Shown here in pieces: positions 3,062 through 38,441 of a DNA stretch of 64,000 nucleotides. The position numbers and the translations under genes were made by a program. The stretch covers positions 1 to 64,000 of the forward strand of contig JAUCBJ010004223.1 of the NCBI GenBank assembly GCA_032718475.1. Reading direction: 5' to 3'. This DNA is from Nemertoderma westbladi (lineage: Eukaryota; Animalia; Xenacoelomorpha). The notes beneath the pieces were generated by a model, which saw nothing but the letters and a program-made list of their open reading frames with translations, ran no database searches and was not told the origin of the DNA. Within the stretch, counting starts at the first letter, position 1. Every line of letters starts with the position of its first letter.

Positions 3062-6000
3062 TATGTAAGGTAAACAATCTCACAGCAACATATAACCAAG
3101 GCGTACTAAGGAACTCACCAGATAGAACTATGTAAGGTAAACAATCTCACAGCAACATATAACCAAGGCGTCCTAAGGAACTCACCAGATAGAACTATGT
3201 AAGGTAAACAATCTCACAGCAACATATAACCAAGGCGTACTAAGGAACTCACCAGATAGAACTATGTAAGGTAAACAATCTCACAGCAACATATAACCAA
3301 GGCGTCCTAAGGAACTCACCAGATAAAACTAAGTAAGGTAAACAATCTCACAGCAACATATAACCAAGGCGTCCTAAGGAACTCACCAGATAGAACTATG
3401 TAAGGTAAACAATCTCACAGCAACATATAACCAAGGCGTCCTAAGGAACTCACCAGATAGAACTATGTAAGGTAAACAATCTCACAGCAACATATAACCA
3501 AGGCGTCCTAAGGAACTCACCAGATAGAACTATGTAAGGTAAACAATCTCACAGCAACATATAACCAAGGCGTCCTAAGGAACTCACCAGATAGAACTAT
3601 GTAAGGTAAACAATCTCACAGCAACATATAACCAAGGCGTCCTAAGGAACTCACCAGATAGAACTATGTAAGGTAAACAATCTCACAGCAACATATAACC
3701 AAGGCGTCCTAAGGAACTCACCAGATAGAACTATGTAAGGTAAACAATCTCACAGCAACATATAACCAAGGCGTCCTAAGGAACTCACCAGATAGAACTA
3801 TGTAAGGTAAACAATCTCACAGCAACATATAACCAAGGCGTCCTAAGGAACTCACCAGATAGAACTATGTAAGGTAAACAATCTCACAGCAACATATAAC
3901 CAAGGCGTCCTAAGGAACTCACCAGATAGAACTATGTAAGGTAAACAATCTCACAGCAACATATAACCAAGGCGTCCTAAGGAACTCACCAGATAGAACT
4001 ATGTAAGGTAAACAATCTCACAGCAACATATAACCAAGGCGTACTAAGGAACTCACCAGATAGAACTATGTAAGGTAAACAATCTCACAGCAACATATAA
4101 CCAAGGCGTCCTAAGGAACTCACCAGATAGAACTATGTAAGGTAAACAATCTCACAGCAACATATAACCAAGGCGTCCTAAGGAACTCACCAGATAGAAC
4201 TATGTAAGGTAAACAATCTCACAGCAACATAAAACCAAGGCGTCCTAAGGAACTCACCAGATAGAACTACGTAAGGTAAACAATCTCACAGCAACATATA
4301 ACCAAGGCGTCCTAAGGAACTCACCAGATAGAACTATGTAAGGTAAACAATCTCACAGCAACATATAACCAAGGCGTCCTAAGGAACTCACCAGATAGAA
4401 CTATGTAAGGTAAACAATCTCACAGCAACATATAACCAAGGCGTCCTAAGGAACTCACCAGATAGAACTATGTAAGGTAAACAATCTCACAGCAACATAT
4501 AACCAAGGCGTCCTAAGGAACTCACCAGATAGAACTATGTAAGGTAAACAATCTCACAGCAACATAAAACCAAGGCGTCCTAAGGAACTCACCAGATAGA
4601 ACTACGTAAGGTAAACAATCTCACAGCAACATATAACCAAGGCGTCCTAAGGAACTCACCAGATAGAACTATGTAAGGTAAACAATCTCACAGCAACATA
4701 TAACCAAGGCGTCCTAAGGAACTCACCAGATAGAACTATGTAAGGTAAACAATCTCACAGCAACATAAAACCAAGGCGTCCTAAGGAACTCACCAGATAG
4801 AACTACGTAAGGTAAACAATCTCACAGCAACATATAACCAAGGCGTCCTAAGGAACTCACCAGATAGAACTATGTAAGGTAAACAATCTCACAGCAACAT
4901 ATAACCAAGGCGTCCTAAGGAACTCACCAGATAGAACTATGTAAGGTAAACAATCTCACAGCAACATATAACCAAGGCGTCCTAAGGAACTCACCAGATA
5001 GAACTATGTAAGGTAAACAATCTCACAGCAACATATAACCAAGGCGTCCTAAGGAACTCACCAGATAGAACTATGTAAGGTAAACAATCTCACAGCAACA
5101 TAAAACCAAGGCGTCCTAAGGAACTCACCAGATAGAACTACGTAAGGTAAACAATCTCACAGCAACATATAACCAAGGCGTCCTAAGGAACTCACCAGAT
5201 AGAACTATGTAAGGTAAACAATCTCACAGCAACATATAACCAAGGCGTCCTAAGGAACTCACCAGATAGAACTATGTAAGGTAAACAATCTCACAGCAAC
5301 ATATAACCAAGGCGTCCTAAGGAACTCACCAGATAGAACTACGTAAGGTAAACAATCTCACAGCAACATATAACCAAGGCGTCCTAAGGAACTCACCAGA
5401 TAGAACTATGTAAGGTAAACAATCTCACAGCAACATATAACCAAGGCGTCCTAAGGAACTCACCAGATAGAACTATGTAAGGTAAACAATCTCACAGCAA
5501 CATATAACCAAGGCGTCCTAAGGAACTCACCAGATAGAACTATGTAAGGTAAACAATCTCACAGCAACATATAACCAAGGCGTCCTAAGGAACTCACCAG
5601 ATAGAACTATGTAAGGTAAACAATCTCACAGCAACATATAACCAAGGCGTCCTAAGGAACTCACCAGATAGAACTATGTAAGGTAAACAATCTCACAGCA
5701 ACATATAACCAAGGCGTCCTAAGGAACTCACCAGATAGAACTATGTAAGGTAAACAATCTCACAGCAACATATAACCAAGGCGTCCTAAGGAACTCACCA
5801 GATAGAACTATGTAAGGTAAACAATCTCACAGCAACATATAACCAAGGCGTCCTAAGGAACTCACCAGATAGAACTATGTAAGGTAAACAATCTCACAGC
5901 AACATATAACCAAGGCGTCCTAAGGAACTCACCAGATAGAACTATGTAAGGTAAACAATCTCACAGCAACATATAACCAAGGCGTCCTAAGGAACTCACC

Positions 6001-9000
6001 AGATAGAACTATGTAAGGTAAACAATCTCACAGCAACATATAACCAAGGCGTCCTAAGGAACTCACCAGATAGAACTATGTAAGGTAAACAATCTCACAG
6101 CAACATATAACCAAGGCGTCCTAAGGAACTCACCAGATAGAACTATGTAAGGTAAACAATCTCACAGCAACATATAACCAAGGCGTCCTAAGGAACTCAC
6201 CAGATAGAACTATGTAAGGTAAACAATCTCACAGCAACATATAACCAAGGCGTCCTAAGGAACTCACCAGATAGAACTATGTAAGGTAAACAATCTCACA
6301 GCAACATATAACCAAGGCGTCCTAAGGAACTCACCAGATAGAACTATGTAAGGTAAACAATCTCACAGCAACATATAACCAAGGCGTCCTAAGGAACTCA
6401 CCAGATAGAACTATGTAAGGTAAACAATCTCACAGCAACATATAACCAAGGCGTCCTAAGGAACTCACCAGATAGAACTATGTAAGGTAAACAATCTCAC
6501 AGCAACATATAACCAAGGCGTCCTAAGGAACTCACCAGATAGAACTATGTAAGGTAAACAATCTCACAGCAACATATAACCAAGGCGTCCTAAGGAACTC
6601 ACCAGATAGAACTATGTAAGGTAAACAATCTCACAGCAACATATAACCAAGGCGTCCTAAGGAACTCACCAGATAGAACTATGTAAGGTAAACAATCTCA
6701 CAGCAACATATAACCAAGGCGTCCTAAGGAACTCACCAGATAGAACTATGTAAGGTAAACAATCTCACAGCAACATATAACCAAGGCGTCCTAAGGAACT
6801 CACCAGATAGAACTATGTAAGGTAAACAATCTCACAGCAACATATAACCAAGGCGTCCTAAGGAACTCACCAGATAGAACTATGTAAGGTAAACAATCTC
6901 ACAGCAACATATAACCAAGGCGTCCTAAGGAACTCACCAGATAGAACTATGTAAGGTAAACAATCTCACAGCAACATATAACCAAGGCGTCCTAAGGAAC
7001 TCACCAGATAGAACTATGTAAGGTAAACAATCTCACAGCAACATATAACCAAGGCGTCCTAAGGAACTCACCAGATAGAACTATGTAAGGTAAACAATCT
7101 CACAGCAACATATAACCAAGGCGTCCTAAGGAACTCACCAGATAGAACTATGTAAGGTAAACAATCTCACAGCAACATATAACCAAGGCGTCCTAAGGAA
7201 CTCACCAGATAGAACTATGTAAGGTAAACAATCTCACAGCAACATATAACCAAGGCGTCCTAAGGAACTCACCAGATAGAACTATGTAAGGTAAACAATC
7301 TCACAGCAACATATAACCAAGGCGTCCTAAGGAACTCACCAGATAGAACTATGTAAGGTAAACAATCTCACAGCAACATATAACCAAGGCGTCCTAAGGA
7401 ACTCACCAGATAGAACTATGTAAGGTAAACAATCTCACAGCAACATATAACCAAGGCGTCCTAAGGAACTCACCAGATAGAACTATGTAAGGTAAACAAT
7501 CTCACAGCAACATATAACCAAGGCGTCCTAAGGAACTCACCAGATAGAACTATGTAAGGTAAACAATCTCACAGCAACATATAACCAAGGCGTCCTAAGG
7601 AACTCACCAGATAGAACTATGTAAGGTAAACAATCTCACAGCAACATATAACCAAGGCGTCCTAAGGAACTCACCAGATAGAACTATGTAAGGTAAACAA
7701 TCTCACAGCAACATATAACCAAGGCGTCCTAAGGAACTCACCAGATAGAACTATGTAAGGTAAACAATCTCACAGCAACATATAACCAAGGCGTCCTAAG
7801 GAACTCACCAGATAGAACTATGTAAGGTAAACAATCTCACAGCAACATATAACCAAGGCGTCCTAAGGAACTCACCAGATAGAACTATGTAAGGTAAACA
7901 ATCTCACAGCAACATATAACCAAGGCGTCCTAAGGAACTCACCAGATAGAACTATGTAAGGTAAACAATCTCACAGCAACATATAACCAAGGCGTCCTAA
8001 GGAACTCACCAGATAGAACTATGTAAGGTAAACAATCTCACAGCAACATATAACCAAGGCGTCCTAAGGAACTCACCAGATAGAACTATGTAAGGTAAAC
8101 AATCTCACAGCAACATATAACCAAGGCGTCCTAAGGAACTCACCAGATAGAACTATGTAAGGTAAACAATCTCACAGCAACATATAACCAAGGCGTCCTA
8201 AGGAACTCACCAGATAGAACTATGTAAGGTAAACAATCTCACAGCAACATATAACCAAGGCGTCCTAAGGAACTCACCAGATAGAACTATGTAAGGTAAA
8301 CAATCTCACAGCAACATATAACCAAGGCGTCCTAAGGAACTCACCAGATAGAACTATGTAAGGTAAACAATCTCACAGCAACATATAACCAAGGCGTCCT
8401 AAGGAACTCACCAGATAGAACTATGTAAGGTAAACAATCTCACAGCAACATATAACCAAGGCGTCCTAAGGAACTCACCAGATAGAACTATGTAAGGTAA
8501 ACAATCTCACAGCAACATATAACCAAGGCGTCCTAAGGAACTCACCAGATAGAACTATGTAAGGTAAACAATCTCACAGCAACATATAACCAAGGCGTCC
8601 TAAGGAACTCACCAGATAGAACTATGTAAGGTAAACAATCTCACAGCAACATATAACCAAGGCGTCCTAAGGAACTCACCAGATAGAACTATGTAAGGTA
8701 AACAATCTCACAGCAACATATAACCAAGGCGTCCTAAGGAACTCACCAGATAGAACTATGTAAGGTAAACAATCTCACAGCAACATATAACCAAGGCGTC
8801 CTAAGGAACTCACCAGATAGAACTATGTAAGGTAAACAATCTCACAGCAACATATAACCAAGGCGTCCTAAGGAACTCACCAGATAGAACTATGTAAGGT
8901 AAACAATCTCACAGCAACATATAACCAAGGCGTCCTAAGGAACTCACCAGATAGAACTATGTAAGGTAAACAATCTCACAGCAACATATAACCAAGGCGT

Positions 9001-10034
9001 CCTAAGGAACTCACCAGATAGAACTACGTAAGGTAAACAATCTCACAGCAACATATAACCAAGGCGTCCTAAGGAACTCACCAGATAGAACTATGTAAGG
9101 TAAACAATCTCACAGCAACATATAACCAAGGCGTCCTAAGGAACTCACCAGATAGAACTATGTAAGGTAAACAATCTCACAGCAACATATAACCAAGGCG
9201 TCCTAAGGAACTCACCAGATAGAACTATGTAAGGTAAACAATCTCACAGCAACATATAACCAAGGCGTCCTAAGGAACTCACCAGATAAAACTAAGTAAG
9301 GTAAACAATCTCACAGCAACATATAACCAAGGCGTCCTAAGGAACTCACCAGATAGAACTATGTAAGGTAAACAATCTCACAGCAACATATAACCAAGGC
9401 GTCCTAAGGAACTCACAAGATAGAACTATGTAATGTAAACAATCTCACAGCAACATATAACCAAGGCGTCCTAAGGAACTCACCAGATAGAACTATGTAA
9501 GGTAAACAATCTCACAGCAACATATAACCAAGGCGTACTAAGGAACTCACCAGATAGAACTATGTAAGGTAAACAATCTCACAGCAACATATAACCAAGG
9601 CGTCCTAAGGAACTCACCAGATAGAACTATGTAAGGTAAACAATCTCACAGCAACATATAACCAAGGCGTCCTAAGGAACTCACCAGATAGAACTATGTA
9701 AGGTAAACAATCTCACAGCAACATATAACCAAGGCGTCCTAAGGAACTCACCAGATAGAACTATGTAAGGTAAACAATCTCACAGCAACATATAACCAAG
9801 GCGTACTAAGGAACTCACCAGATAGAACTATGTAAGGTAAACAATCTCACAGCAACATAAAACCAAGGCGTCCTAAGGAACTCACCAGATAGAACTACGT
9901 AAGGTAAACAATCTCACAGCAACATATAACCAAGGCGTCCTAAGGAACTCACCAGATAGAACTACGTAAGGTAAACAATCTCACAGCAACATATAACCAA
10001 GGCGTCCTAAGGAACTCACCAGATAGAACTATGT
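3062..10034. repeat. 67-bp satellite, ~104 copies; unit = last 15 nt of Arp2 exon 6 plus first 52 nt of intron 6
   Basis: Minus-strand unit ACATAGTTCTATCTG|gtgagttccttaggacgccttggttatatgttgctgtgagattgtttacctt. Period 67, and the terminal copy is the real exon junction. Confidence 0.97.
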
Positions 10035-10197
10035 GTTTATAGAAATCAGCTCGGATATCCATATCAGCCGACTGAATGGTTGTGAATAACAACTCTGCAA
10101 TCCCAAATCCCTCAACGTTTATTAGATGCGGCTGAAATAGCGCTTCTGGGGCTTCGAACCTCTCACCCCCAATCTTAATAACACGCCCGTCAGGAAG
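10020..10197 (-). CDS. ACTR2: Arp2 exon 6, [59 protein letters not shown](G); gene continues beyond window start
   Basis: Manual translation. Acceptor ctcttttag, 178 nt, donor GTGAGT, phase 1. The expected next exon (GSTMYPG...) was not found in 1-10019. Confidence 0.94.
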
Positions 10198-10526: not shown

Positions 10527-11411
10527 CAGGGTGTCCCAATAAATTTGATCCACTTTTAAAGTTTAATAACTCATCACAATGTACATCAATCGCAGACTTC
10601 TAGGTGTCATACGAAAGCTAATAGGTGAACTTAGAATTTGGGAGTTTTTCTGGTTGTGGTAGTTGCTACTTGCTATGGAAACTAATCAGATAAGTTTACA
10701 TTAAAACTGTATCTTGAGTGTTAGATGTGAAATTTATTCGCGGAAATAAATAAATAATAACTTGTTTCCCTGTGAATAAACAACTATTCTAGAATGCCAT
10801 TTGTAGTTACTAGAGTAGCCAATATCTCTGTAATGTTTACAGACGAACAACAAGTTTTCATTGTTAAAACCTACTACCGAAAGCAGTCTTCCATGCTTAC
10901 AGAGTTAGAATTTTCTTACCAGTTCGTACCGGTAAGTGTTGGGCGTCCTACGAGATCAAACATATCGCGTCTTGTAAGAAAATTTGAGAGTGAAAAATCT
11001 TTGTTATGCAAATCAGGTACTCAAAGGCCTTCAATTAGCCTAGATAAAGTTTCAGTTATTAAAACGGAGCAGGTGGATTGGCAGAGACGGTCCTATACGA
11101 TGGCTAACTCGTTCTGCAGGGTCCTATACGATGGGTAACTCGTTCTGCAGGGTCCTATACGATGGCTAACTCGTTCTGCAGGGTCCTATACGATGGCTAA
11201 CTCGTTCTGCAGGGTCCTATACGGTGGCTAACTCGTTCTGCAGGGTCCTATACGATGGCTAACTCGTTCTGCAGGGTCCTATACGATGGCTAACTCGTTC
11301 TGCAGGGTCCTATACGATGGCTAACTCGTTCTGCAGGGTCCTATACGATGGCTAACTCGTTCTCCCGGTTTACTATTTATGGGGCCATACGATGGCTAAC
11401 TCGTTCTCCCG
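10527..11411 (+). mobile_element. Internally deleted Tc1/mariner transposon fragment (DUF4817-like HTH N-terminus plus RWIGRxGPxxWxxRSPDL remnant)
   Basis: Left end TA|CAGGGTGTCCC. ORF 10794-11138 reads FTDEQQVFIVKTYY...PTRSNISRLVRKFE. Another frame from 11071 reads RWIGRDGPIRWLTRS. No right TIR seen. Confidence 0.75.
11089..11363. repeat. 31-bp tandem repeat, ~9 copies, derived from the mariner coding sequence
   Basis: Unit gggtcctatacgatggctaactcgttctgca. Confidence 0.92.
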
Positions 11412-13797
11412 AGAATTTCTTACTTTGCAGAGGTACGTGTTTATCGAGGATGGACCTGAGAGAAAAGTCATACATTTCCACTAACTCGTCTAAGGTGTAG
11501 TTTGGAGTACTAAACAGGTTGCTGGTACTTAAGTCATTCCAATAATCATCTACATTAATTGACTTCAGTTTTCGGTATAGAGTGCTATTTTGGGTGTTAG
11601 TTGGTTTCTTAATATTGATGTTAAATGAAACCGTGAAGTGATCTGATAAACCGATGTCACTGGTAGATACGTTTTTTAATTAGATGTTCATTTTCAGTAT
11701 GGGTGAGAACCAAGTCCAAGGTATTCCACGATCGGTGGGGGGGTCCACTAACAAACTGTTGTAGACCAAAACACTTGCACATATCTAGAAAATCGGACGC
11801 CAGTCTGTCGTCATTCTTGTTAACATGAAAGTTAAAATCTCCAATTAAAATCAGTTTCCCCGACGTGATGGATATTCGTTCTAAAAAATCAGCAAACTTA
11901 TCAATAAAGAGCCGTGCAGTTAGACCATTTCGACTGGAAGGGCATGTGCGATAAATTATGAATAGGCGCACTAATGTGCCACAACATAGTATTGTTGTCT
12001 CTATAGATACTCAAAGGACGGATAGCTAATTTTGTATTCGATGTAGTTATTGACTTTCAGGCGAGTATTTATAACACAAGCGACACCACCATCGCAACTT
12101 GCAGTTGCTGAAGGAACTCTGGGTTTATTATGCAAACGGTAATTGGAATCTTTGGGACATAAAATGCTCGCAGGTACAATATCTGCAACTGTACCAGTAA
12201 ACAAGTTTCAATTATTGCAACGACATCGAAATCCATCTCCGAAAAATAATCATAAAAGTAGGAAGCCTTGTTATTTATGGATTGTGCATTAATTATACAG
12301 ATACTTATTGAAGCCATTCTTATCCAAACATGACAAAATAGGAGCGGATAAATGTTGAGCTGATCCAGATTCTGAAACTTCAGGAGGAACTGGAATCTGA
12401 ACTGAAATGGAACTGAAATCTAGTCAGTCCATACATTCAGTATTGTCGTCGCGAGGTTCTATGCGTCGGAAAACTCGAGATCGTACCTCGCCGGATGTAG
12501 TTCGAGAATCCAGAAACTCATCTTCCTGGATCTGTGCATCTTTGCTACTAGTACTAGTGTCTTTGTGCGCATTTGAGGAGTCCACCACCAGCGCTCGTTC
12601 AACCACTTCGTTACGACTTATTACCCACTTTTTGCGAGGTTCTTTGGAACGCTTCTTTTTCAGAGCCATTCTAAGCTCCTACTGTTCGTGGGCCTGTGCG
12701 CGAGTATAGTCAGGATTTATGTATACTGCCATAAATTTCACTGAGAACTGTAGATTCTTGGCAGCTTTTAAGAGTTCGAGCCGCTTATCTGGATTTAGAG
12801 TTACTACTATTTTCTGTCCAGGGTTACTCGAACGAGATTCAGGAACCGTTGGACCTATTCTTTTAACACCTACAATCCCTTCAGATAAATTAACACCAAC
12901 TTCTGCAGCAATGTCAACTACAGTCGCTTTATCATTAGTTGTGTCTGGTACGAAACTCCTGGAAATTACCAGGTTATCTATCCTCTCAGATTGAAGGCGA
13001 GTTTCTTTCTGTACTTCCCATGTAATTGCTGCTACTACCGGTACAGGAATATTCCAGGATGTGTTCCTCTCTCCTCAAACGATTCGCCCTCACTTAACCA
13101 CCGAGGACCACGAAGAACCAACTTCCTGAGCCTCGGCGGGTGAATCATCCTCTGAAGATAGGGCAGTTATCGATTCTTTAATAGTCACAACTTCATCAAC
13201 TATATTCTTAGCATCTTCTTTAACTTCATTGATTAAATCATGGAAGTCTGAGCGAACTGATTTAAGGGATGTGGTAACAGACCAACAATCGATTCTTTGT
13301 TGTGTTGTTGCGAGAGCGAGATTTTGTCAATTTCAGCTTGTAGACGAGACTCAACGTCCGATATTTCATCCGCCAACCTCGATATATGTCTGGCGGAACA
13401 CTGTCCACAATAAAACTCTACTTCAGTGAAGTCAATGGACGATTTAGCAATACAGATAATGGCGGTATTGTATTTCTTACCAGAGCAGCTAACCTTGATT
13501 TCTTCGGAGCTAGAATTGGCCACTTGTTGTGCTGCCACTTTCGCCTGCTTCGTCATCGAGTTCTTAGTCACCGGATCTCTTTTAGACCCGAGGCTTGTAA
13601 GCGTTCTGTTCACGCTATCTTTACTAAACTTTTCAAACTTATTGTTAATTGAACAAAAACCCAATTCGTTAATTAAAAGCTACGCAGCAAAGTATTCCAC
13701 CAAGCAACAGTACGATCGGTATATGGTACGTTACCAGTACGTGTGCTTCCGCCACCATATAGCACTAGACGTTGTATGCAATCAGTACTTATACTTA
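11412..13797 (-). mobile_element. Degenerate CR1/L2-group LINE: ORF1 remnants and AP-endonuclease domain, RT portion missing
   Basis: APE motifs split by frameshifts: ICIINAQSINNK...VAIIET (12069-12317), LILIGDFNFH and NTLDLVLT (11657-11971), then SDH. Upstream ORF1-like pieces include a Cys-containing segment (FYCGQC) and a coiled-coil-like stretch. Confidence 0.8.
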
Positions 13798-15669
13798 TAC
13801 GATGACGATGGCTAACTCGTTCTCCCGGATTACTATTTATGGGGCCATACGATGGCTAACTCGTTCTCCCGGTTTACTATTTATGGGGCCATACGATGAT
13901 GGCTAACTCGTTCTCCCGGTTTACTATTTATGGGGCCATACGATGATGGCTAACTCGTTCTCCCGGTTTAGTATTTATGGGGCCATACGATGGCTAACTC
14001 GTTCTCCCGGTTTACTATTTATGGGGCCATACGATGATGGCTAACTCGTTCTCCCGGTTTACTATTTATGGGGCCATACGATGATGGCTAACTCGTTCTC
14101 CCGGTTTAGTATTTATGGGGCCATACGATGATGGCTAACTCGTTCTCCCGGTTTACTATTTATGGGGCTATATGATGGCTAACTCGTTCTCCCGGTTTAG
14201 TATTTATGGGGCCATACGATGATGGCTAACTCGTTCTCCCGGTTTACTATTTATGGGGCTATACGATGGCTAACTCGTTCTCCCGGATTACTATTTATGG
14301 GGCCATACGATGATGGCTAACTCATTCTCCCGGTTTACTATTTATGGGGCCATACGATGGCTAACTCGTTCTCCCGGTTTACTATTTATGGGGCCATACG
14401 ATGATGGCTAACTCGTTCTCCCGGTTTACTATTTATGGGGCCATACGATGATGGCTAACTCGTTCTCCCGGTTTACTATTTATGGGGCCATACGATGATG
14501 GCTAACTCATTCTCCCGGTTTACTATTTATGGGGCCATACGATGGCTAACTCGTTCTCCCGGATTACTATTTATGGGGCTATATGATGGCTAACTCGTTC
14601 TCCCAGTTTACTATTTATGGGGCTATACGATGGCTAACTCGTTCTCCCGGTTTACTATTTATGGGGCTATACGATGGCTAACTCGTTCTCCCGGTTTACT
14701 ATTTATGGGGCTATATGATGGCTAACTCGTTCTCCCGGTTTACTATTTATGGGGCTATACGAAGGCTAACTCGTTCTCCCGGTTTACTATTTATGGGGCT
14801 ATCTGATGGCTAACTCGTTCTCCCGGTTTACTATTTATGGGGCCATACGATGATGGCTAACTCGTTCTCCCGGTTTACTATTTATGGGGCCATACGATGA
14901 TGGCTAACTCGTTCTCCCGGTTTACTATTTATGGGGCCATACGATGATGGCTAACTCGTTCTCCCGGTTGACTATTTATGGGGCTATATGATGGCTAACT
15001 CGTTCTCCCGGTTTACTATTTATGGGGCTATACGATGGCTAACTCGTTCTCCCGGTTTACTATTTATGGGGCCATACGATGGCTAACTCGTTCTCCCGGT
15101 TTACTATTTATGGGGCTATATGATGGCTAACTCGTTCTCCCGGTTTAGTATTTATGGGGCCATACGATGATGGCTAACTCGTTCTCCCGGTTTACTATTT
15201 ATGGGGCTATACGATGGCTAACTCGTTCTCCCGGATTACTATTTATGGGGCTATATGATGGCTAACTCATTCTCCCAGTTTACTATTTATGGGGCTATAT
15301 GATGGCTAACTCGTTCTCCCGGTTTAGTATTTATGGGGCCATACGATGATGGCTAACTCGTTCTCCCGGTTTACTATTTATGGGGCTATACGATGGCTAA
15401 CTCGTTCTCCCGGATTACTATTTATGGGGCTATATGATGGCTAACTCGTTCTCCCGGTTTACTATTTATGGGGCCATACGATGATGGCTAACTCGTTCTC
15501 CCGGTTTACTATTTATGGGGCCATACGATGATGGCTAACTCGTCCTCCTGGTTTACTATTTATGGGGCCATACGATGATGGCTAACTCGTTCTCCTGGTT
15601 TACTATTTATGGGGCCATACGATGGCTAACTCGTTCTCCAGGTTTACTATTTATGGGGCCATACGATGA
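13798..15669. repeat. 44/47-bp satellite, ~41 copies, mariner-derived
   Basis: Unit tac(gat)gatggctaactcgttctcccggtttactatttatggggcca. The same unit occurs at ~11343-11411 on the other side of the LINE. Confidence 0.95.
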
Positions 15670-22651: not shown

Positions 22652-22770
22652 GTAGATAATTGCTGCTCTTGTTCGATATCGTAACCAACGTAACAAAGTT
22701 TCTCTTTGATCATCCGAACTGTCTCGAAATCCGCTGAGTGGTTGAAAGCGTAACCACGGAGAAGTAATAG
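22621..22770 (-). CDS. ACTR2: Arp2 exon 5, [50 protein letters not shown]
   Basis: Lies within ORF 22600-22848. 150 nt, acceptor tttatttcag, donor GTAAGT. Arp2-diagnostic [15 protein letters not shown]. Confidence 0.95.
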
Positions 22771-22883
22771 CTGAAATAAAAACCGAAAAATACCATAAAA
22801 ATATATCGTCAGATCGCTCAGATTCCTCAAGAATTGCCTATCAATCATATAAATTTATATCTGTTTCAGATTCTAAGTGATGT

Positions 22884-23112
22884 GTTTGTAAAAGCAACAT
22901 ATGTTTGTAAAAGCAGCATCTGTTTGTAAAAGCAACATCTGTTTGTAAAAGCAACATCTGTTTGTAAAAAAAAAACTCTGTTTGTAAAAGCAACATCTGT
23001 TTGTAAAAGCAACATATGTTTGTAAAAGCAACATATGTTTGTAAATCTGTTTGTAAAAGCAACATTTCTTTGTAAAAGCAACATCTGTTTGTAAAAGCAA
23101 CATCTGTTTGTA
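22884..23112. repeat. 19-bp minisatellite, ~12 copies, near the intron 4 acceptor
   Basis: Unit aaagcaacatctgtttgta. Confidence 0.9.
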
Positions 23113-26078: not shown

Positions 26079-26905
26079 CCGTATTTACTCGAATAAGAGC
26101 CCACTCGAATAAAAGCCCGGGGCTCGAATTAACGCCCCTCTTACCATCAAATTAGAAACTTAAACGCATTCCCGAATAAAACGCGTTTAATAATATTACA
26201 TTGTGCGGCGTTAACATTGTTTAGAGTTATTGTTAAAACTGAAGGTAAATGGAGTGCGGTGTTGTACCGCCTGGCTGCGTTGTAATAAAGATAATCCTGG
26301 TTTTATTTGACCCACTCGAACCTCACAATTTGGAACTTAAACGCCCTCCTCGAATAAACGCCCCCCTCGAATAAACGCCCCCCCCCTGGAATAAACGCCT
26401 TCCTCGAATAAACGCCCCCCTCGAATAAACGCCCCCTCGAATAAACGCCTTCCCGAATAAACGCCTTCCCCGAATAAACGCACGCTCCGAATACACGCCC
26501 TCCCCGAATAAACGCCCCCCCTCGATTAAACGCCCCCCCCCCCCCCCCGAATAAGCGCCCTCCCCGAATAAACGCCCCTCCCCCCCGAATAAACGCCCTC
26601 CCCGAATAAACGCACGCTCCGAATATAAGCCCTCCCCGAATAAACGCCCCCCTCGATCCCCGAATAAACGCCCTCCCCGAATAAACGCCCCCCTAGAATA
26701 AACGCCCCCCCCGAATAAACGCCCTCCCCGAATAAACGCCTTCCCTCGAATAAACGCCCTCCTCGAATAAACGCCCTCCTCGAATAAACGCCCCCCCCCC
26801 CCGAATAAACGCCCCCCCCCCCGAATCAATGCCCCCTCGAATAAACGCCCTCCCCGAATAAACGCCCTCCTCGAATAAACGCCCTCCCCGAATAAACGCC
26901 CCCCG
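26079..26905 (+). mobile_element. pogo/Tc1-like MITE left end with an expanded ~17-bp CGAATAAACGCCC array (26340-26905)
   Basis: Terminus TA|CCGTATTTACTCGAATAAG followed by subterminal copies of the motif that forms the array. Right end not found. Confidence 0.6.
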
Positions 26906-27380: not shown

Positions 27381-27468
27381 AGAACCGAGGACTACAGCAT
27401 TCCCTTTAATCCTGTTTATATCGCAGAACCGAGGACTACAGCATTCCCTTTAATCCTGTTTATATCGC
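27381..27468. repeat. Perfect 44-bp tandem duplication ~65 nt into intron 4
   Basis: agaaccgaggactacagcattccctttaatcctgtttatatcgc occurs twice. Confidence 0.9.
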
Positions 27469-27533: not shown

Positions 27534-27743
27534 CTTGATAAGATACTTGGTAATATCGCGGCCGGCAATGTCCAACCGTTTAGTAAGATGGGGTAACGAG
27601 AATCCGTCATACACGGGACATATGTGGGTGACGCCATCCCCTGAGTCAACAACCACACCTGTTAGTAAACCTTGGGCGTAGAGTGTCATTACAGCCTGAA
27701 TGGCAACGTAGACCCCGGCGAATTCAAACTGCTCCAACATAAT
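27534..27743 (-). CDS. ACTR2: Arp2 exon 4, [18 protein letters not shown]...[15 protein letters not shown]...[13 protein letters not shown]
   Basis: Overlaps ORF 27486-27740. Actin phosphate-2 loop DSGDGVTH, 210 nt, acceptor atttcag, donor GTGAGA. Confidence 0.95.
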
Positions 27744-27812: not shown

Positions 27813-30800
27813 GTTCCGATATACTAGATAGAAGGTTCCGATATACTAGATAGAAGGTTCCGATATACTAGATAGAAGGTTCCGATATACTAGATAGAAG
27901 GTTCCGATATACTAGATACAAGGTTCCGATATACTAGATAGAAGGTTCCGATATACTAGATAGAAGGTTCCGATATACTAGATAGAAGGTTTCGATATAC
28001 TAGATAGAAGGTTTCGATTTACTAGATAGAAGGTTCCGATATACTAGATAGAAGGTTCCGATATACTAGATAGAAGGTTCCGATATACTAGATAGAAGGT
28101 TCCGATATACTAGATAGAAGGTTCCGATATACTAGATAGAAGGTTCCGATATACTAGATAGAAGGTTCCGATATACTAGATAGAAGGTTCCGATATACTA
28201 GATAGAAGGTTCCGATATACTAGATAGAAGGTTCCGATATACTAGATAGAAGGTTCCGATATACTAGATAGAAGGTTCCGATATACTAGATAGAAGGTTC
28301 CGATATACTAGATAGAAGGTTCCGATATACTAGATAGAAGGTTCCGATATACTAGATAGAAGGTTCCGATATACTAGATAGAAGGTTCCGATATACTAGA
28401 TAGAAGGTTCCGATATACTAGATAGAAGGTTCCGATATACTAGATAGAAGGTTCCGATATACTAGATAGAAGGTTCCGATATACTAGATAGAAGGTTCCG
28501 ATATACTAGATAGAAGGTTCCGATATACTAGATAGAAGGTTCCGATATACTAGATAGAAGGTTCCGATATACTAGATAGAAGGTTCCGATATACTAGATA
28601 GAAGGTTCCGATATACTAGATAGAAGGTTCCGATATACTAGATAGAAGGTTCCGATATACTAGATAGAAGGTTCCGATATACTAGATAGAAGGTTCCGAT
28701 ATACTAGATAGAAGGTTCCGATATACTAGATAGAAGGTTCCGATATACTAGATAGAAGGTTCCGATATACTAGATAGAAGGTTCCGATATACTAGATAGA
28801 AGGTTCCGATATACTAGATAGAAGGTTCCGATATACTAGATAGAAGGTTCCGATATACTAGATAGAAGGTTCCGATATACTAGATAGAAGGTTCCGATAT
28901 ACTAGATAGAAGGTTCCGATATACTAGATAGAAGGTTCCGATATACTAGATAGAAGGTTCCGATATACTAGATAGAAGGTTCCGATATACTAGATAGAAG
29001 GTTCCGATATACTAGATAGAAGGTTCCGATATACTAGATAGAAGGTTCCGATATACTAGATAGAAGGTTCCGATATACTAGATAGAAGGTTCCGATATAC
29101 TAGATAGAAGGTTCCGATATACTAGATAGAAGGTTCCGATATACTAGATAGAAGGTTCCGATATACTAGATAGAAGGTTCCGATATACTAGATAGAAGGT
29201 TCCGATATACTAGATAGAAGGTTCCGATATACTAGATAGAAGGTTCCGATATACTAGATAGAAGGTTCCGATATACTAGATAGAAGGTTCCGATATACTA
29301 GATAGAAGGTTCCGATATACTAGATAGAAGGTTCCGATATACTAGATAGAAGGTTCCGATATACTAGATAGAAGGTTCCGATATACTAGATAGAAGGTTC
29401 CGATATACTAGATAGAAGGTTCCGATATACTAGATAGAAGGTTCCGATATACTAGATACAAGGTTCCGATATACTAGATAGAAGGTTCCGATATACTAGA
29501 TAGAAGGTTCCGATATACTAGATAGAAGGTTCCGATATACTAGATAGAAGGTTCCGATATACTAGATAGAAGGTTCCGATATACTAGATAGAAGGTTCCG
29601 ATATACTAGATAGAAGGTTCCGATATACTAGATAGAAGGTTCCGATATACTAGATAGAAGGTTCCGATATACTAGATAGAAGGTTCCGATATACTAGATA
29701 GAAGGTTCCGATATACTAGATAGAAGGTTCCGATATACTAGATACAAGGTTCCGATATACTAGATAGAAGGTTCCGATATACTAGATAGAAGGTTCCGAT
29801 ATACTAGATAGAAGGTTCCGATATACTAGATAGAAGGTTCCGATATACTAGATAGAAGGTTCCGATATACTAGATAGAAGGTTCCGATATACTAGATAGA
29901 AGGTTCCGATATACTAGATAGAAGGTTCCGATATACTAGATAGAAGGTTCCGATATACTAGATAGAAGGTTCCGATATACTAGATAGAAGGTTCCGATAT
30001 ACTAGATAGAAGGTTCCGATATACTAGATAGAAGGTTCCGATATACTAGATAGAAGGTTCCGATATACTAGATAGAAGGTTCCGATATACTAGATAGAAG
30101 GTTCCGATATACTAGATAGAAGGTTCCGATATACTAGATAGAAGGTTCCGATATACTAGATAGAAGGTTCCGATATACTAGATAGAAGGTTCCGATATAC
30201 TAGATAGAAGGTTCCGATATACTAGATAGAAGGTTCCGATATACTAGATAGAAGGTTCCGATATACTAGATACAAGGTTCCGATATACTAGATAGAAGGT
30301 TCCGATATACTAGATAGAAGGTTCCGATATACTAGATAGAAGGTTCCGATATACTAGATAGAAGGTTCCGATATACTAGATAGAAGGTTCCGATATACTA
30401 GATAGAAGGTTCCGATATACTAGATAGAAGGTTCCGATATACTAGATAGAAGGTTCCGATATACTAGATAGAAGGTTCCGATATACTAGATAGAAGGTTC
30501 CGATATACTAGATAGAAGGTTCCGATATACTAGATACAAGGTTCCGATATACTAGATAGAAGGTTCCGATATACTAGATAGAAGGTTCCGATATACTAGA
30601 TAGAAGGTTCCGATATACTAGATAGAAGGTTCCGATATACTAGATAGAAGGTTCCGATATACTAGATAGAAGGTTCCGATATACTAGATAGAAGGTTCCG
30701 ATATACTAGATAGAAGGTTCCGATATACTAGATAGAAGGTTCCGATATACTAGATAGAAGGTTCCGATATACTAGATAGAAGGTTCCGATATACTAGATA

Positions 30801-31714
30801 GAAGGTTCCGATATACTAGATACAAGGTTCCGATATACTAGATAGAAGGTTCCGATATACTAGATAGAAGGTTCCGATATACTAGAAAGAAGGTTCCGAT
30901 ATACTAGATACTAGAAGGTTCCGAAATACTAGATAGAAGGTTGCGATATACTAGATAGAAGGTTCCGATATACTAGATAGAAGGTTGCGATATACTAGAT
31001 AGAAGGTTCCGATATACTAGATAGAAGGTTCCGATATACTAGATAGAAGGTTCCGATATACTAGATACAAGGTTCCGATATACTAGATAGAAGGTTCCGA
31101 TATACTAGATAGAAGGTTCCGATATACTAGATAGAAGGTTCCGATATACTAGATAGAAGGTTCCGATATACTAGATAGAAGGTTCCGATATACTAGATAG
31201 AAGGTTCCGATATACTAGATAGAAGGTTCCGATATACTAGATAGAAGGTTCCGATATACTAGATACAAGGTTCCGATATACTAGATAGAAGGTTGCGATA
31301 TACTAGATACAAGGTTCCGATATACTAGATAGAAGGTTGCGATATACTAGAAAGAAGGTTCCGATATACTAGATAGAAGGTTCCGATATACTAGATAGAA
31401 GGTTCCGATATACTAGATAGAAGGTTCCGATATACTAGATAGAAGGTTCCGATATACTAGATAGAAGGTTCCGATATACTAGATACAAGGTTCCGATATA
31501 CTAGATAGAAGGTTGCGATATACTAGATACAAGGTTCCGATATACTAGATAGAAGGTTCCGATATACTAGATAGAAGGTTCCGATATACTAGATAGAAGG
31601 TTCCGATATACTAGATAGGAGGTTCCGATATACTAGATAGAAGGTTGCGATATACTAGATAGGAGGTTCCGATATACTAGATAGAAGGTTCCGATATACT
31701 AGATAGAAGGTTCC
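27813..31714. repeat. 22-bp satellite, ~177 copies, filling ~98% of Arp2 intron 3
   Basis: Unit gttccgatatactagatagaag. Begins 6 nt after the exon 3 donor; the intron is 27744-31720. Confidence 0.97.
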
Positions 31715-31720: not shown

Positions 31721-31901
31721 CTCGAGCATCTTCATCCTATTAGTCAGCGGGTTCATTGGCGGCTCTGTCAGTAGGATTTTGCTGTCCTTGGGGTTTATGT
31801 TAAGTTTTGTTTCACCGAAGGTATATTCCCATAACAACATCTGGTCTTCCCAATTCCTAACCATGCCGTTCTCCATTGGATAACTCAGCTCCAATAACGA
31901 C
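31721..31901 (-). CDS. ACTR2: Arp2 exon 3, (R)[20 protein letters not shown]...[18 protein letters not shown]
   Basis: Lies within ORF 31655-31909. YPMENG and LTEPPMNP motifs, 181 nt, acceptor attag, donor GTCAGT. Confidence 0.94.
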
Positions 31902-32053
31902 CTAATCATGTCAGTTAGATAGTATTAGCTAATTATTTATATAGTCTGTGGATTAATAACGGCTATAATTAACTATAATATTAATATATCACCCAGCTAA
32001 GCCAATATACTCAATGTAAATAATAATTGTGGTCAGGTATTCTAGGTCACTAA

Positions 32054-33910
32054 TCAAGAATACAGGAGCTAATAAACCAACAGGTTGATGCCATCAATGA
32101 TGCTGACGACAGCAGGCAATCATCCCAGGCATGGAAATCGATCAATCTGCTTACTGGGCGGAAAAGCCAACCAATCACCAAGGTTAAGGCTGAATCACCA
32201 GCCGATCGCCTCAATGGTTGGAAAGCCCACTTTGAAAAGCTCCTCAATAATGACAGGTTATTGCCTGATAACTTTATAGAAGTAAAAGTGTCTGAGTCTG
32301 TACTCCCAGATATTCCCATTGGCGATATCTCCTTTGCAGAAGTGAAGGCTGCTGCAAAGAGCATTAAGACCAATCGTGCCAGTGGAGTAGATGGTGTTCC
32401 CCCTGAGGTCTTTAAAATACCTGAGTGTTTAAAGCTCATCTATCCCATCATAGTAGACATGTACCGAACAACAAGAGTCGCACAAGAAATGAAAACAAAT
32501 AAGTTGGTGCCAGTTCCCAAGAAGGGCAACCTAACACTCTACGGTTCTTTTCGGGGAATCTCATTGATCTCGATTGCTGCAAAGCTATACAATAGGATTC
32601 TATTAAATCGCATCAGGGATCCCATTGAGAGACTGCTCCGTGGAAATCAGAATGGGTTCCGTAAAGGTCGTGGGACCATGGAGCCCATTTTGGCACTTAG
32701 AAGGATAATTGAAGAGTTATCAAAAAAGAAAGACAGGCATCTGGCTGTTATCTTTGTTGACTTCTTCAAGGCCTTTGATTCAGTCTCTCGCTCACGTATG
32801 TTCAGCATACTTTCATTATATGGGATTCCTGATGAAATTATTGCAGCAATCAGATCAGTATACGATGGTTCGACAACATTTGTGTCTACTGTTGACGGTG
32901 ACACAGAACCATTTGAAGTGTTATGGGGCGTCCTCCAAGGAGACACACTTGCACCATTCTTGTTCATTATTGTGGTTGACTATGTTCTACGCATGTCCTT
33001 AGATCATCATAATGATGATGGGGTGATGATAACTCCACCTACTGGCTCCAGAAGTCGAGGAAATCCTGCCAAGTACCTAACTGATCTAGACTTTGCTGAT
33101 GACTTAGGAGTACTCTCAGAATCACTAGAGGGAGCCCAACGGCTCCTCAGCTCATTAGAACATGCTGCTTCTAGTGTTGGTCTTTTTATTAACTCCAGAA
33201 AGACCAAAATTCTGACAGTTAACTTTGAAAGTCCTCAGCAAGTCTCTGATCGGATGAGCATAAGCTCAAAGGATGGTATGCTTGAGCATGTGGACGACTT
33301 CTGTTACCTGGGATCATGGATCCGGAAGTCAGGTGAGGACCTTCGAATACGTAAGGGAAAGGCATGGGCAGCCTTGAATAGGCTTTCCATGATTTGGAAG
33401 TCACCGAGAATTAATCGGAAACTTAAGGTCCGATTATTTAGAGCAGCAGTAGTTCCAGTACTCCTCTACGGGAGTCCATGCCGGGCTCTAACTGCTGAGG
33501 ACACCAAATCTCTGGATGGCACATTCACAAGAATGCTACGCCGGGTACATTGTGTCAAGTACAATGCACACATCTCCAACCAGACACTATATAACATTGG
33601 AGGTGTCTCATTGGTTCCCCCAAGCTTGACACTAGAACAAAATCGCCTCGGCTTTGCAGGACATTGCTTTCGCCGTGAGGACCAGCCAGTGCATAATCTT
33701 GTACTTTGGCAGCCTCATGGAGTGAATAAGCATGGTGGACAGCCCATGACTTTCTTGAGACGTATCTTAAAGGACACTGGCCTTAAAGATGCGGATGATC
33801 TAGCAAATGTCATGGGTGATAGGGAGTTGTGGCGGTGCAATTTTGTTGACAAGCCGGCACAGCATTCTTAAAAATGCAGCTGCAATGCAGCATGCCGATC
33901 CTAGTAGTAG
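32054..33910 (+). mobile_element. 5'-truncated RTE-clade LINE with an uninterrupted RT frame, antisense in intron 2
   Basis: ORF 32261-33871, with the frame open back to ~32054. Motifs FRGISLISI, QNGFRKGRGT, FVDFFKAFDSV, GVLQGDTLAPFLF, DLDFADD, FCYLGS, FAGHCFR. Short 3' UTR ending in (TAG)3. Confidence 0.92.
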
Positions 33911-33969
33911 TTGTCTGTTCGAGAACGGAACATACCGATATAATACCTGATGCAAATTAATCTGTATAA

Positions 33970-34077
33970 CTACCCTACCTACAATAGTCCTAACTATACC
34001 CTACCCTACCTACAATAGTCCTAACTATACCCTACCCTACCTACAATAGTCCTAACTATACCCTCAACCCTACCTAC
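33970..34077. repeat. 31-bp tandem repeat, ~3 copies, just inside the intron 2 donor
   Basis: Unit taccctacctacaatagtcctaactataccc. Confidence 0.85.
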
Positions 34078-34103: not shown

Positions 34104-34249
34104 CTAACTTCACTGGCTTCGTCTCCAATCATAATGTCTTTAACTTCAATTCCACCGACTTTAGAAGTTGATCTAATAATTGGCCGACCCACAATCGACG
34201 GGAAAATATATTCTGGAAAATTACTTCCGGCAAATCCACATTTTACGAA
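34104..34249 (-). CDS. ACTR2: Arp2 exon 2, [48 protein letters not shown](R)
   Basis: Acceptor ttcttctttag, 146 nt, donor GTAGGT, phase 2. In frame with exons 1 and 3, with Arp2-like sequence. Confidence 0.94.
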
Positions 34250-34260
34250 CTAAAGAAGAA

Positions 34261-34430
34261 CAATATTTATATATTTGATTATAATTATTTATTATATCAA
34301 TATTTATATATTGATTAGTATTATTTATTATATCAATATTAATATATTGATTAGTATTATTTATTATATCAATATTTATATTTGATTATAATTATTTATT
34401 ATATCAATATTAATATATTGATTATGATTA
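34261..34430. repeat. ~36-bp AT-rich tandem repeat, ~5 copies, adjoining the exon 2 acceptor
   Basis: caatatt(t/a)atatattgatta...ttatttattatat at 34261, 34298, 34334, 34370 and 34405. Confidence 0.85.
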
Positions 34431-35599
34431 GCACTTGAACTGGTAGAAACACAAATTTGTGTTTTCAGAATACAATGTTGACTTGGTCATGTATATATTT
34501 CGTTGTTACTTGGTGAGATGTTTTTTATGAGTTTTATACCACACCTCAGCGTTTTTCTTTGGATATTATAATTATTTAAATGTTCATGTACAAAAATTTT
34601 TCTATTAAAATAAGGAGAAAATTGTTTTTTTTATAAGAAATAAGAACTATAAATAAATAATTAACAATAAATGAAAATAGTAAATAAATAATAATAAATT
34701 AAAATAATAAATAATAATAATAAATTAATAATAATAAATTAAAATAATAAATAAATAATAATAAATTAAAATAATAAATTCATTAATAAATAAGTTAGCG
34801 ATAAAAAAATTACGACCACAGGCGACAACGACGAGGGCAACAGACAACTCGTTAATGAATGGCACCTATATGCTAAGGCTTCGCTCACTTCGTGGCTCGC
34901 CCCAATGAGTAAGTAGAATACTGGAGAGTAGAATATACCGGTATTTCCATTCGTTTGGTCAGTCTCTCAGTTGGTAGGGTAGGCCACCTTGGCCTAGGCC
35001 TAACGGCAGGTGTTCAATAGGCCAGGTTACATCTATACTGTATTATATTATAGGCTAATATTACAAAAATAAAAATACCTTTTACTGGGTTATGAACAGA
35101 TAAAATAGGTAGGCCTAATAGATATGCATGACAAACTGAAAGTATTTAACACAACTGCACAAGGCAGCAATGCACAAAATCTAATTAGTTAAAATTACAA
35201 ATTGACTTTTACAAAGTAGAAGTACGTAAGTTAAAAGCTCGGTAACACAAACAGTAGGCTAACACACTTAGGGTTAAATTACTGCTTTAATTATGGTTTG
35301 TGCCTGACCAAAAAACCCTAACCTAAAAAACACCCCAGTCAGCACCTAAAAAACATTAAGTACCGGTAACCCAAGACAGCCAAGTAAAATAAAGCTGAAT
35401 GCTTTCCATATAAAAAGTGGCGCCTGTAGTCTGATAGTCAAAATGTATGTCAGTGTCAACTAAAATTGTCTGCATTAATTTATTGTCGTTATTTATTGAT
35501 GGTGTATATAGGCCTATATGTGTGTATATTAGCCTCGAGGAATGTCCCCTGAGGTAAAGACCTCGTCTCCGAGGGGGGTCCTCGTTAAAAAGTATTTAA

Positions 35600-37786
35600 A
35601 AATAAAATTGAACTGTCATCTAAATACAGAAATAGTTACTACAGGTGATGATCTTAACACTCATGATCTTAACACGACACTGGTTGCCGATGTGACCTTT
35701 GTGGACAACTTATTCCAAAGACGGGGACCTAGTGCTAGTGATGAAAACGAAGTTTGCCAGAGTTTTGTGTGTCGGTGGGGAATTGTTGGAAAGAAAAAGA
35801 GGAGAAGACCACCCAGGCAATATAGCACTTACGGGGGCCCGAAAATTGAAATTATCGGTCAAAGTGACAAAAATCTTGAAAATCAATATCCATTAATCGA
35901 ACTGAAAAAATATTTGGGGTTGGCGAATCTACTAGAGATTGAGGTAATGAGTTCCATACAGGCACCACCCTATTAGAAAAAAAGTATTTTGAGATTAAAA
36001 GACGTGAATGGGAAACAAGTAATTTGTGAGAATGACCCCTAAGCCCAGGTCTACCTGTATAAGAAAAATATTCATCAAAACACAAATCAACTAAATTTCT
36101 CTCAATTTTATACACCATCTTTAAATCAAAAATTATGCGCCTAACTTCCAATGGTTTTAACTTAAGAAACTGCAGTCGATCTACGTAGGTCATATATGGT
36201 AGTTTGCAACGGGCAAACAATCTGCGGGTGAAGTACTTTTGGACACGTTCGACCAAATCAATTGTACATTTATGATGAGGAGACCAAATGTAAGTACAAT
36301 ATTCCACTAAAGGACGAATATATGCTTTGTAAGCCGTAATAAGGGCAGATCGATTTGCAGTACGGAAGCACCGAAATATCATATTGGTTATTTTATTTGC
36401 TTTGGCGGCTTGCTCCCTACAGTACACATTAAATTTCAAGTCAGGGCACATAATCATTCCTAGATCCTTGCCATCCATGCATTCCAATTTTAAACCACTT
36501 AAAAAGTAAGGGTTTTCAGGGTTATTTAGTCCTAAGTAAAGCACTTGACACTTATGACTAGCTACGTTAAGTTGCCATGTATTAGACCAGGACGACAAAG
36601 CACCCAAAGAATCACATAAATTAATATAATTAGAAGACGGTGCATAAATCTTTACATCATCAGCGTATAATTTACAGCACACACCATTAATTCCAATTAA
36701 ATCAGGTAAGTCGTTTATAAAAATCACGAATAAAATGGGGCCGATAACACTTCCTTGCGGAGTACCTGATTGGACACTCCGGGAAACGGAAAATTCATTA
36801 CCTACTAGCACTTGTTGGCTCCGATTTGATAGAAAAGCTGCAATCCAAGCCAGAAGGTTACCACATATGCCGTATCCGGCAAGTTTACACAATAACTTAC
36901 TATGCACTACTCGATCAAAAGCCTTAGAGAAGTCTATGTACAAAATGTCAATAGAACATTTCTTTTCAGCTAAATTGACCCAATCGTTAATGCATTCCAA
37001 TAACTGAGTACCAGTAGATCGGCGCTTTAAAAAACCATGCTGATGTGTAGTAATTAACTTATGGGCAAAAAGGTAATCAATTAGTTCAGTTTTTATACAG
37101 GATTCCATTATCTTACATGCTACACAAGTTAATGAAACCGGGCGGTAGTTGTACGGGTCTGAGGCATTGCCTTTCTTAAAAATCGGAATAATGTTAGCAG
37201 TTAACCAAATAGAAGGCAGAGCGTGTGTTATAAACGAGACTTGAAAAATAATAGATAAAGGAAGTGCCAATTGACGAGCTAATTTATAAAATATAATGCT
37301 AGGAAAATTATCTGGAGTGTTGCTACGTTTAGGGGTAAGACCTCTCAGCGACGCAAATACCTTATCTACACTGAAATTTATTTCTGACTTCGACACATTT
37401 GAAGGGACTCTTCGTTCAAAAACCGGCACTTCCCCATTATCATTAACATAGTTCTCGGAAAGCACTTTCGAAAATATCTGTGCCTTTGTAATATCATCAA
37501 CTACTGTAGCACCATTAAATTTAAGTGGGGCAATACCTGATTTATTATTACGCTTTGAATTCACATATTTAAAAATGGCCTCAGGGTTATTTGATGAAAG
37601 AATATGGTTTTCACGTATGCAAGCATTTCGCAAAATAGCCCGGGATACTTCTTTTGTGCACCTGTTGTATTCAGTGAAACCTAGCGGGGTGTGTCTCCGC
37701 CGCCAAAGAAGTTTCTTTTTTTGCTGTAGTTTCCTAATATGTTCAGGATGCGCCTTCCTATTGCCTTTCTTTCTGTTGCTTTTGAT
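35600..37786 (-). mobile_element. 5'-truncated CR1-clade LINE with an intact RT ORF (35852-37633), in intron 1
   Basis: Motifs NYRPVSLT, QHGFLKRRST, YIDFSKAFD, GTPQGSVIGPILF, LYADD, RPLVEYCTYIWSP, LRGHSHKL, FFSNRVVPVWNSLP. The 3' boundary is approximate. Confidence 0.93.
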
Positions 37787-38230
37787 TTAGTCGAGTGTCG
37801 TTTCGCAATATTCAATGAGGTCTGTCAGATAGTCAGGTGAAGTTCCACGATATATCTTGTACATGCTGGTCACGATACCTTGGTGAACCCTTTCACGGAT
37901 TGGGAGCCAGTTTATGTTAGAGTAGTGTGAATAATCAATGTGCACTCGATCGCCCAGAAAAATACAGAAGCGAATGCACTTCCGCTGAAGCACATCTATC
38001 TTCTTCCGCCATCTAGCCGTTGTTCCAAAGTGCATAGTCTATATAAGGTTGTATGAGGGGATTACATAGCATTCGCCGCTGTCCCGATTTTAGTACATTA
38101 GCATGACGATATAAAAAAACGTATCCTCTGGTTACCTTTCAGCCTTTCATTGCTACACTTTCGGCCATTTCTTTACAAGACAATGTTTGGTCCAGCTGGC
38201 AAAATACTGACATAGGTAAAGGACTGATGA
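37787..38230 (-). mobile_element. Degraded L2/Crack-type LINE C-terminal fragment
   Basis: KIDVLQRKCIRF...NWLPIRER...MYKIYRGTSPDYL, typical of the post-RT region of CR1/L2-group LINEs. Confidence 0.65.
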
Positions 38231-38441
38231 AGAGACTGGTATTACAGTATTAATCTGTTAATTTCCCATTACGGTGGACCCGGTAGGCGGTAGCTGGGTA
38301 GGCCTACATGTAGGGGGTAGGCCTAAACTTTAATTTTATCATTTAGTCCTAACCTAAATAGGCCCTACAAAACCAGAAAACTGCACAAGAAATCTAGAAA
38401 TATATGAATGTGATTACTGGATTACTGGATTATGAACTTAC

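Follow-up and report, generated by a model that had tools for sequence, protein, structure and literature searches.

Splice-donor minisatellites and donor-proximal repeats in the Arp2 introns of Nemertoderma westbladi

Minisatellites whose units span exon-intron boundaries are known from amphioxus, where such 'mirages' occur in Adh3, the globin genes BflGb6 and BflGb9, troponin C and PGBD5 (PMC3087553, PMC3902484). Their units measure 10-72 bp in Adh3 and are present in 3-6 copies in BflGb6; the mechanism that generates them has been called unclear (PMC3087553). Human minisatellites at splice donors have been reported in F7 intron 7 (37 bp, 5-9 copies), 6-16 (25 pseudo-sites), CBS intron 13 (15-20), LAMIN B2 (100 bp) and PDGF (81 bp), where the most upstream donor dominates and, in 6-16 and CBS, the second or third is also used to a minor extent (PMC1557585). 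We describe a 64,000-nucleotide (nt) stretch of Nemertoderma westbladi DNA (GCA_032718475.1, contig JAUCBJ010004223.1, positions 1 to 64,000 of the forward strand; hereafter the window), in which the introns of the Arp2 gene carry tandem repeats close to their splice sites. Two of these, with units of 49 and 67 nt, belong to the mirage and splice-donor minisatellite class by the defining features examined. The arrays are probably locus-private minisatellites that arose by ordinary slippage or unequal exchange in introns of probably 100-500 nt, their closeness to exons being mostly a by-product of transposons that later filled the intron middles.

Arp2 lies on the minus strand, with seven exons in the window and its final exon beyond the window edge. 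The gene model has GT at 7/7 donors, AG at 6/6 acceptors and 338 open codons. It was compared with contigs from two sequencing runs of separate studies, X2 and X3, which are labelled 'DNA?' and whose contigs behave like spliced transcripts. The exons, and the basis of each, are as follows.

38442-38489, minus strand: exon 1 (coding); translation, and a match to the loose end of an X2 contig at exon 2.
34104-34249, minus strand: exon 2; translation and contigs.
31721-31901, minus strand: exon 3; translation, contigs and homologue search.
27534-27743, minus strand: exon 4; translation and match to a solved Arp2.
22621-22770, minus strand: exon 5; translation; X2 and X3 contigs terminate at its first donor.
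10020-10197, minus strand: exon 6; translation; X2 and X3 loose ends from exon 5.
1408-1508, minus strand: exon 7; translation; nearest array 275 nt from the donor.

Exon 4 matched a solved Arp2 structure at E=4.6e-37, as compared with 1.5e-24 for actin. Intron 2 (2202 nt) was skipped exactly, by a joint, in X2 and X3 contigs. Loose ends of X2 contigs led from exon 2 to exon 1 and from exon 3 to exon 4, and those of both runs led from exon 5 to exons 4 and 6. Spliced-type contigs therefore back introns 1-5, intron 2 by a joint and the remaining four by loose ends, while introns 6 and 7 were placed by translation.

A repeat with a different unit in each intron lay 9, 26, 6, 65, 0 and 0 nt from donors 1 to 6, respectively. 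All eight repeats named in the initial annotation of this stretch were recovered in place by array detection in the window.

38412-38432, minus strand: 8-mer, 2.6 copies, in intron 1, 9 nt past donor 1.
34261-34424, no strand assigned: 36-mer, 4.6 copies, ~11 nt from acceptor 1; read depth near the single-locus level.
33970-34077, no strand assigned: 31-mer, 3.4 copies, 26 nt past donor 2.
27813-31714, no strand assigned: 22-mer, 177 copies, 6 nt past donor 3; fills intron 3.
27381-27468, no strand assigned: exact 44-bp duplication, 65 nt past donor 4; no microhomology at its ends.
22883-23112, no strand assigned: 19-mer, 12 copies, 112 nt from acceptor 4.
19231-22651, minus strand: 49-mer, 70 copies, lying across the exon 5 donor, with 69 donor copies intact; use of any later copy would bring in an in-frame stop.
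3062-10034, minus strand: 67-mer, 104 copies, lying across the exon 6 donor, with 103 donor copies intact.

The proposal that repeats begin near almost every donor was borne out for donors 1-6, all within 65 nt, but it had missed exon 7, whose donor has an 86-mer, 275 nt away, as its nearest array. The 36-mer and 19-mer do lie near acceptors, as had been noted. Extra array copies make up ~53% of introns 1-6. Among 23,320 bases outside the arrays, the 8-mer was the sole exact short repeat of its kind (mean after shuffling, 0.05); the threshold for this count had been chosen to fit the 8-mer itself.

The 67-mer unit consists of 15 nt of exon 6 and 52 nt of intron, and the 49-mer unit of ~30 nt of exon 5 and 19 nt of intron, ~9 of the intron nucleotides matching neither flank. 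Because these units contain exon sequence, both arrays are amplified local sequence. The initial annotation had said this of the two largest arrays; it is right for the 49-mer and 67-mer, but by length the order is 67-mer, 22-mer, 49-mer. The units of the 22-, 31-, 44-, 36-, 19- and 8-mers span no exon-intron boundary, and these are ordinary intronic repeats. An identical 5-nt word was found at the start and end of the 67-mer array, and likewise of the 22-mer array; the 44-bp duplication ends bluntly, and the distal junction of the 49-mer array was not interpretable. The 67-, 49- and 22-mer arrays were 99.4-99.8% uniform, with variant units clustered at one or both ends. No long repeating pattern, as a signature of rolling-circle amplification, was seen among the variant units, and the uniform cores leave room for that mode of growth.

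Both boundary-spanning arrays reiterate the splice donor head to tail, and the contigs bear on which copy is used in exon 5. X2 and X3 contigs covered only 22621-22772, stopped at the first exon 5 donor and continued into exons 6 and 4. Normal splicing via the first donor is retained for the 49-mer. No X2 or X3 contig extended into the 49-mer past this donor; contigs drop rare forms, so minor use of later copies is possible. A series of in-frame isoforms, one per later donor, was considered and rejected, because in both arrays the use of donors 2-5 would alter the reading frame or introduce a stop. Each 49-mer unit (19231-22620) also has a CAG 36 nt ahead of its donor copy. An in-frame mini-exon of 12 codons per unit is conceivable; it was absent from all X2 and X3 contigs at exon 5.

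These features parallel the described systems. As in amphioxus mirages, units span exon-intron boundaries, several unit lengths occur in one gene, normal splicing is kept (here for the 49-mer) and edge units are excluded from homogenization (in the 67-, 49- and 22-mer arrays) (PMC3087553, PMC3902484). Unlike the 3-6 copies of BflGb6, however, the arrays here reach 70 and 104 copies; only two of the eight repeats near junctions cross a boundary, in each case at a donor; and the host gene has no close Arp2 relative, exon 3 showing ≤77% identity among the best 120 of 497 matches. As in human F7, CBS and 6-16, each array opens with a unit lying across the donor, so that the donor recurs in identical copies, of which the furthest upstream is used (here shown for the 49-mer); the human genes have one array each, whereas Arp2 has two in consecutive introns, of 3-7 kb each (PMC1557585). 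The minor use of later donors seen in 6-16 and CBS is of a kind that contigs would not detect here. The Haber-Louis model, as summarized in PMC6947457, places minisatellite birth between direct repeats of 5-10 bp; the 67-mer and 22-mer arrays, each bearing its own 5-nt word at both ends, are consistent with this model, and the 44-bp duplication, lacking end microhomology, is not. A literature search that left most subscription journals outside its scope found no study testing across a genome whether arrays are enriched at splice sites, and nothing on point for exon-anchored repair. The accessible sections of PMC2812944, on repeats at human exon boundaries, and PMC4039745, on a Caenorhabditis elegans minisatellite near alternative exons, do not address junction seeding.

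The intron middles are occupied by transposons, including long interspersed nuclear elements (LINEs), a long terminal repeat (LTR) retrotransposon fragment and an element resembling miniature inverted-repeat transposable elements (MITEs).

35855-37786, minus strand: LINE reverse-transcriptase frame, intron 1; 644 open codons; Pfam RVT_1, 1.7e-30.
32030-33911, plus strand: very high-copy LINE, the bulk of intron 2; 605-codon open frame; RVT_1, 8.2e-29.
18002-18941, plus strand: broken LTR-retrotransposon fragment with integrase and DUF5641 matches, close to the 49-mer's distal end; rve 1e-5 (below the Pfam cut-off), DUF5641 6.9e-14.
16049-16906, plus strand: broken LINE reverse-transcriptase fragment, intron 5; RVT_1, 5.8e-15.
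1684-2717, no strand assigned: MITE-like element with inverted arms of ~355 nt, intron 6.

The LINEs of introns 1 and 2 are likely young, because their frames of 644 and 605 codons are still open. In X1, a DNA run, the intron 2 LINE had a summed depth of 1-2.6 million, as compared with ~30 on exons; it was also present in X2 and X3 contigs, with depth highest toward its 3' end.

This element provides a yardstick for the arrays. In X1, against a single-copy depth of ~26-34, the core contig of the 49-mer reached 1111, the bin for the 22-mer 602, those for the 36-mer 70-109 and the one over the exon-side half of the 31-mer 29; summed depth is not equal to copy number. The 22-, 31-, 36- and 49-mers thus lack the excess expected of a dispersed family. 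Because their depth is far below the LINE's millions, these four arrays are likely private to the locus, and to this extent the earlier description of the repeats as private satellites is sustained. For the 67-mer, 44-bp, 19-mer and 8-mer repeats, uniqueness was assessed inside the window. The junction-near units had no convincing second match there, the best being 11-20 nt long and either chance-level or AT-rich.

The arrays might instead be imported dispersed satellites, or their lengths artefacts of assembly. A family of 31- and 44-nt units does occur twice in intron 5, and a 17-mer motif of intron 4 recurs at 26087-26140, so that some mid-intron arrays may be transposon-borne. In the short-read contigs of X1 and of X4, a second run from the same sample, the 49-mer and 22-mer arrays were present with depths in the hundreds to thousands, against millions for the LINE. 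From depth ratios, in which summed depth is no copy number, the 49-mer was estimated at ~39 or 88 copies in these two runs (70 in the window) and the 22-mer at no more than ~34 copies in X1 and ~63 in X4 (177 in the window). The latter figures, being below the window's count, speak for an artefact of length; the ratios also give a weak hint of length variation in both arrays. Imported origin is ruled out for the 49-mer and 67-mer by the Arp2 exon sequence in their units, and, as noted, no convincing second match to the junction-near units turned up in the window. Import or misassembly is therefore highly improbable as an account of the arrays as a whole.

Merging of Tandem Repeats Finder (TRF) output gave 14 intronic arrays, of which seven sat 274-3316 nt from the nearest splice site after collapsing: an 86-mer, a 31/44-mer, a 44-mer, a 16-mer, a 16x2, a 17-mer and an AT-rich 27-mer. 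These had been left off the initial annotation's list. Six of them are located as follows.

34652-34805, no strand assigned: AT-rich 27-mer array, intron 1, off the junctions.
26338-26901, no strand assigned: 17-mer array, middle of intron 4; likely transposon-borne, judging from its recurring motif.
23730-25606, no strand assigned: 16-mer, 118 copies, middle of intron 4.
13807-15670, no strand assigned: 44-mer, 41 copies, intron 5, flanked by transposon fragments; family shared with the array at 11089-11412.
11089-11412, no strand assigned: 31-mer, 9 copies, plus a 44-mer unit, intron 5, between a DUF4817 fragment and a LINE endonuclease-like fragment.
1-1132, no strand assigned: 86-mer, 13 or more copies, intron 7; cut by the window start.

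The 31/44-mer family lies on either side of a truncated minus-strand LINE-like block (11089-15670), so arrays here are found at the borders of transposon fragments and not at splice sites. Array density per collapsed kb was 1.2 upstream of the gene (8 in 6.8 kb) as compared with 0.8 in introns (14 in 17.2 kb), indicating that this genome makes arrays freely.

Closeness to splice sites was assessed against a null in which arrays were collapsed to one unit and units were placed at random, junction-spanning seeds being permitted. Array edges were non-randomly close to splice sites in array-collapsed introns (14 arrays, within-intron p=0.0009-0.004). Two transposon annotations were also applied: tool-supported blocks, defined by Pfam frames, depth or inverted arms, and a wide annotation of all blocks judged transposon-like, partly by eye. 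Under the wide annotation, which leaves residual introns of 97-1149 nt, the within-intron p rose to 0.057-0.15 and the gene-wide p was 0.019-0.069 (9 arrays, 5 having been dropped with their blocks). With a uniform residual intron length, there was no signal at ≤300 nt (p=0.17) and a signal at 500 nt (p=0.019). The outcome hinges on how much of each intron counts as host sequence. Intron 3 with one 22-mer unit is ~97 nt long, which forces proximity to splice sites, and intron 2, minus its single LINE and with arrays collapsed, is 243 nt long. The process tied to exon-intron boundaries that the initial annotation proposed faces the objection that tiny ancestral introns would by themselves place any repeat near a junction; at ~97 and ~240 nt, that objection largely holds. 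Of the causes that annotation had named, none of the results obtained here speaks for R-loops, polymerase pausing or rolling-circle amplification.

A donor-proximal mutational bias would account for the same placement differently: lesions linked to transcription or splicing would make duplications more frequent immediately downstream of exons, and these would then expand. A repeat lies within 65 nt of 6/7 donors, and a donor-only test that included the 8-mer gave p=0.00015 with arrays collapsed, 0.004 with tool-supported transposons removed and 0.034 under the wide annotation. However, no array lies close to donor 7, half of the 14 intronic TRF arrays sit well away from splice sites, and arrays upstream of the gene are just as dense. 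The donor side was picked after the data had been seen, in a single gene whose window had been singled out, in a very large scan, because it showed this arrangement; after such selection, p values of 0.01-0.05 mean little. Selection against arrays at acceptors, together with tolerance at donors, would moreover yield the same asymmetry. We consider this bias unlikely as the principal cause.

Another possibility dispenses with splicing: allelic recombination or gene conversion would begin in conserved exons and stall at their edges if intron middles are often hemizygous for insertions, so that homology-anchored repair would seed and expand arrays there. One LINE family is extremely abundant in this genome, the intron middles are transposon mosaics, and arrays occur at donor sides, acceptor sides and transposon-fragment borders alike. 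Unequal or intra-strand exchange has been proposed for the instability of mirages (PMC3087553). Against this, among the joints listed for X1 none skips the intron 2 LINE, and the mechanism is one that we infer ourselves. It appears quite improbable. The broader claim common to both, that tandem duplications preferentially arise immediately downstream of exons, whether by damage linked to transcription or splicing or by repair anchored in exons, and later grow to kilobases, is rather doubtful on present data.

We favour ordinary minisatellite formation in short introns followed by transposon insertion. A short stretch would first duplicate, at least two of the seeds lying between direct repeats of 5 nt; the words are observed, and the Haber-Louis model supplies the putative mechanism. 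The seed would then expand into a uniform array with variant units left at its edges, a pattern that is observed and whose mechanism is presumed. Units copying an exon end and donor may survive since the first donor is still used, as contigs from two studies support for the 49-mer. Splicing at any later donor would shift the frame or meet a stop, as seen for donors 2-5 of both arrays. The insertion of LINEs, LTR fragments and inverted-repeat elements in mid-intron would finally push old host sequence and arrays against the exons; such insertion is observed for blocks supported by Pfam, depth or inverted arms, and presumed for the remaining blocks. The copy numbers may, as was suggested earlier, represent stages of one process.

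Several observations weigh against this explanation. With tool-supported transposons removed, proximity was still significant (12 families; within-intron p=0.005-0.018, gene-wide 0.0002-0.001), and the wide annotation may remove genuine host sequence. Under that annotation, the donor-only value of 0.034 for seven donors fell to 0.009 for six donors, without donor 7. Both exact intronic duplications of ≥8 nt outside the big arrays lay within 65 nt of a donor, as donor bias would have it, although both had already been named in the initial annotation; with one mismatch allowed, 4/5 intronic cases were far from junctions. The 44-bp duplication lacks microhomology. The arrays appear as young as the LINEs, and intron 5 contains several kb of older broken transposon sequence with arrays only at fragment borders, so a contrast in age may not explain the whole of array placement. 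A weak donor bias may operate as well.

Further repeats occur upstream of the gene, off the Arp2 junctions. A tandem duplication of 994 bp (45210-47205) is 99.8% identical with an 8-nt shared end, and its position far from any Arp2 junction speaks for the explanation favoured here; it lies within sequence read by eye as a tRNA-derived short interspersed nuclear element (SINE), and ARAGORN found zero tRNA genes in this SINE-like region. An array of 43-50-nt units (40310-40935), ~1.8 kb upstream of the start codon, holds 12 words each of what we take to be CCAAT type and GC-box type, and could be an amplified promoter-like element. An AT-rich 29-mer satellite of >570 copies is present in three pieces (40996-41076, 42047-43442 and 47338-64000) and extends past the window end. 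Within the gene, introns at positions 194 (donor 2, 34104) and 913 (donor 6, 10020) of the coding sequence differ from what we take to be the structure of human ACTR2, which suggests intron gain and loss in the lineage. A second X2 contig (394 nt) matches 22723-22758 in exon 5 with 4 differences in 36 nt, and could represent a paralogue or another organism in the sample.

The Arp2 locus is an unusually large and dense case of a known repeat class, with about half of introns 1-6 consisting of amplified repeat and a splice donor repeated ~70 times in one array and 104 in another, numbers that clearly exceed those reported in the papers cited. If a donor bias held genome-wide after transposon masking, it would supply a mechanism for the formation of mirages, called unclear in PMC3087553, and would tie transcription or splicing to the birth of repeats. 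Introns across the genome would then have a route of growth in private satellites on their donor side, and this genome would offer a natural test bed for mirage formation and for how the spliceosome chooses one donor among 100 identical ones.

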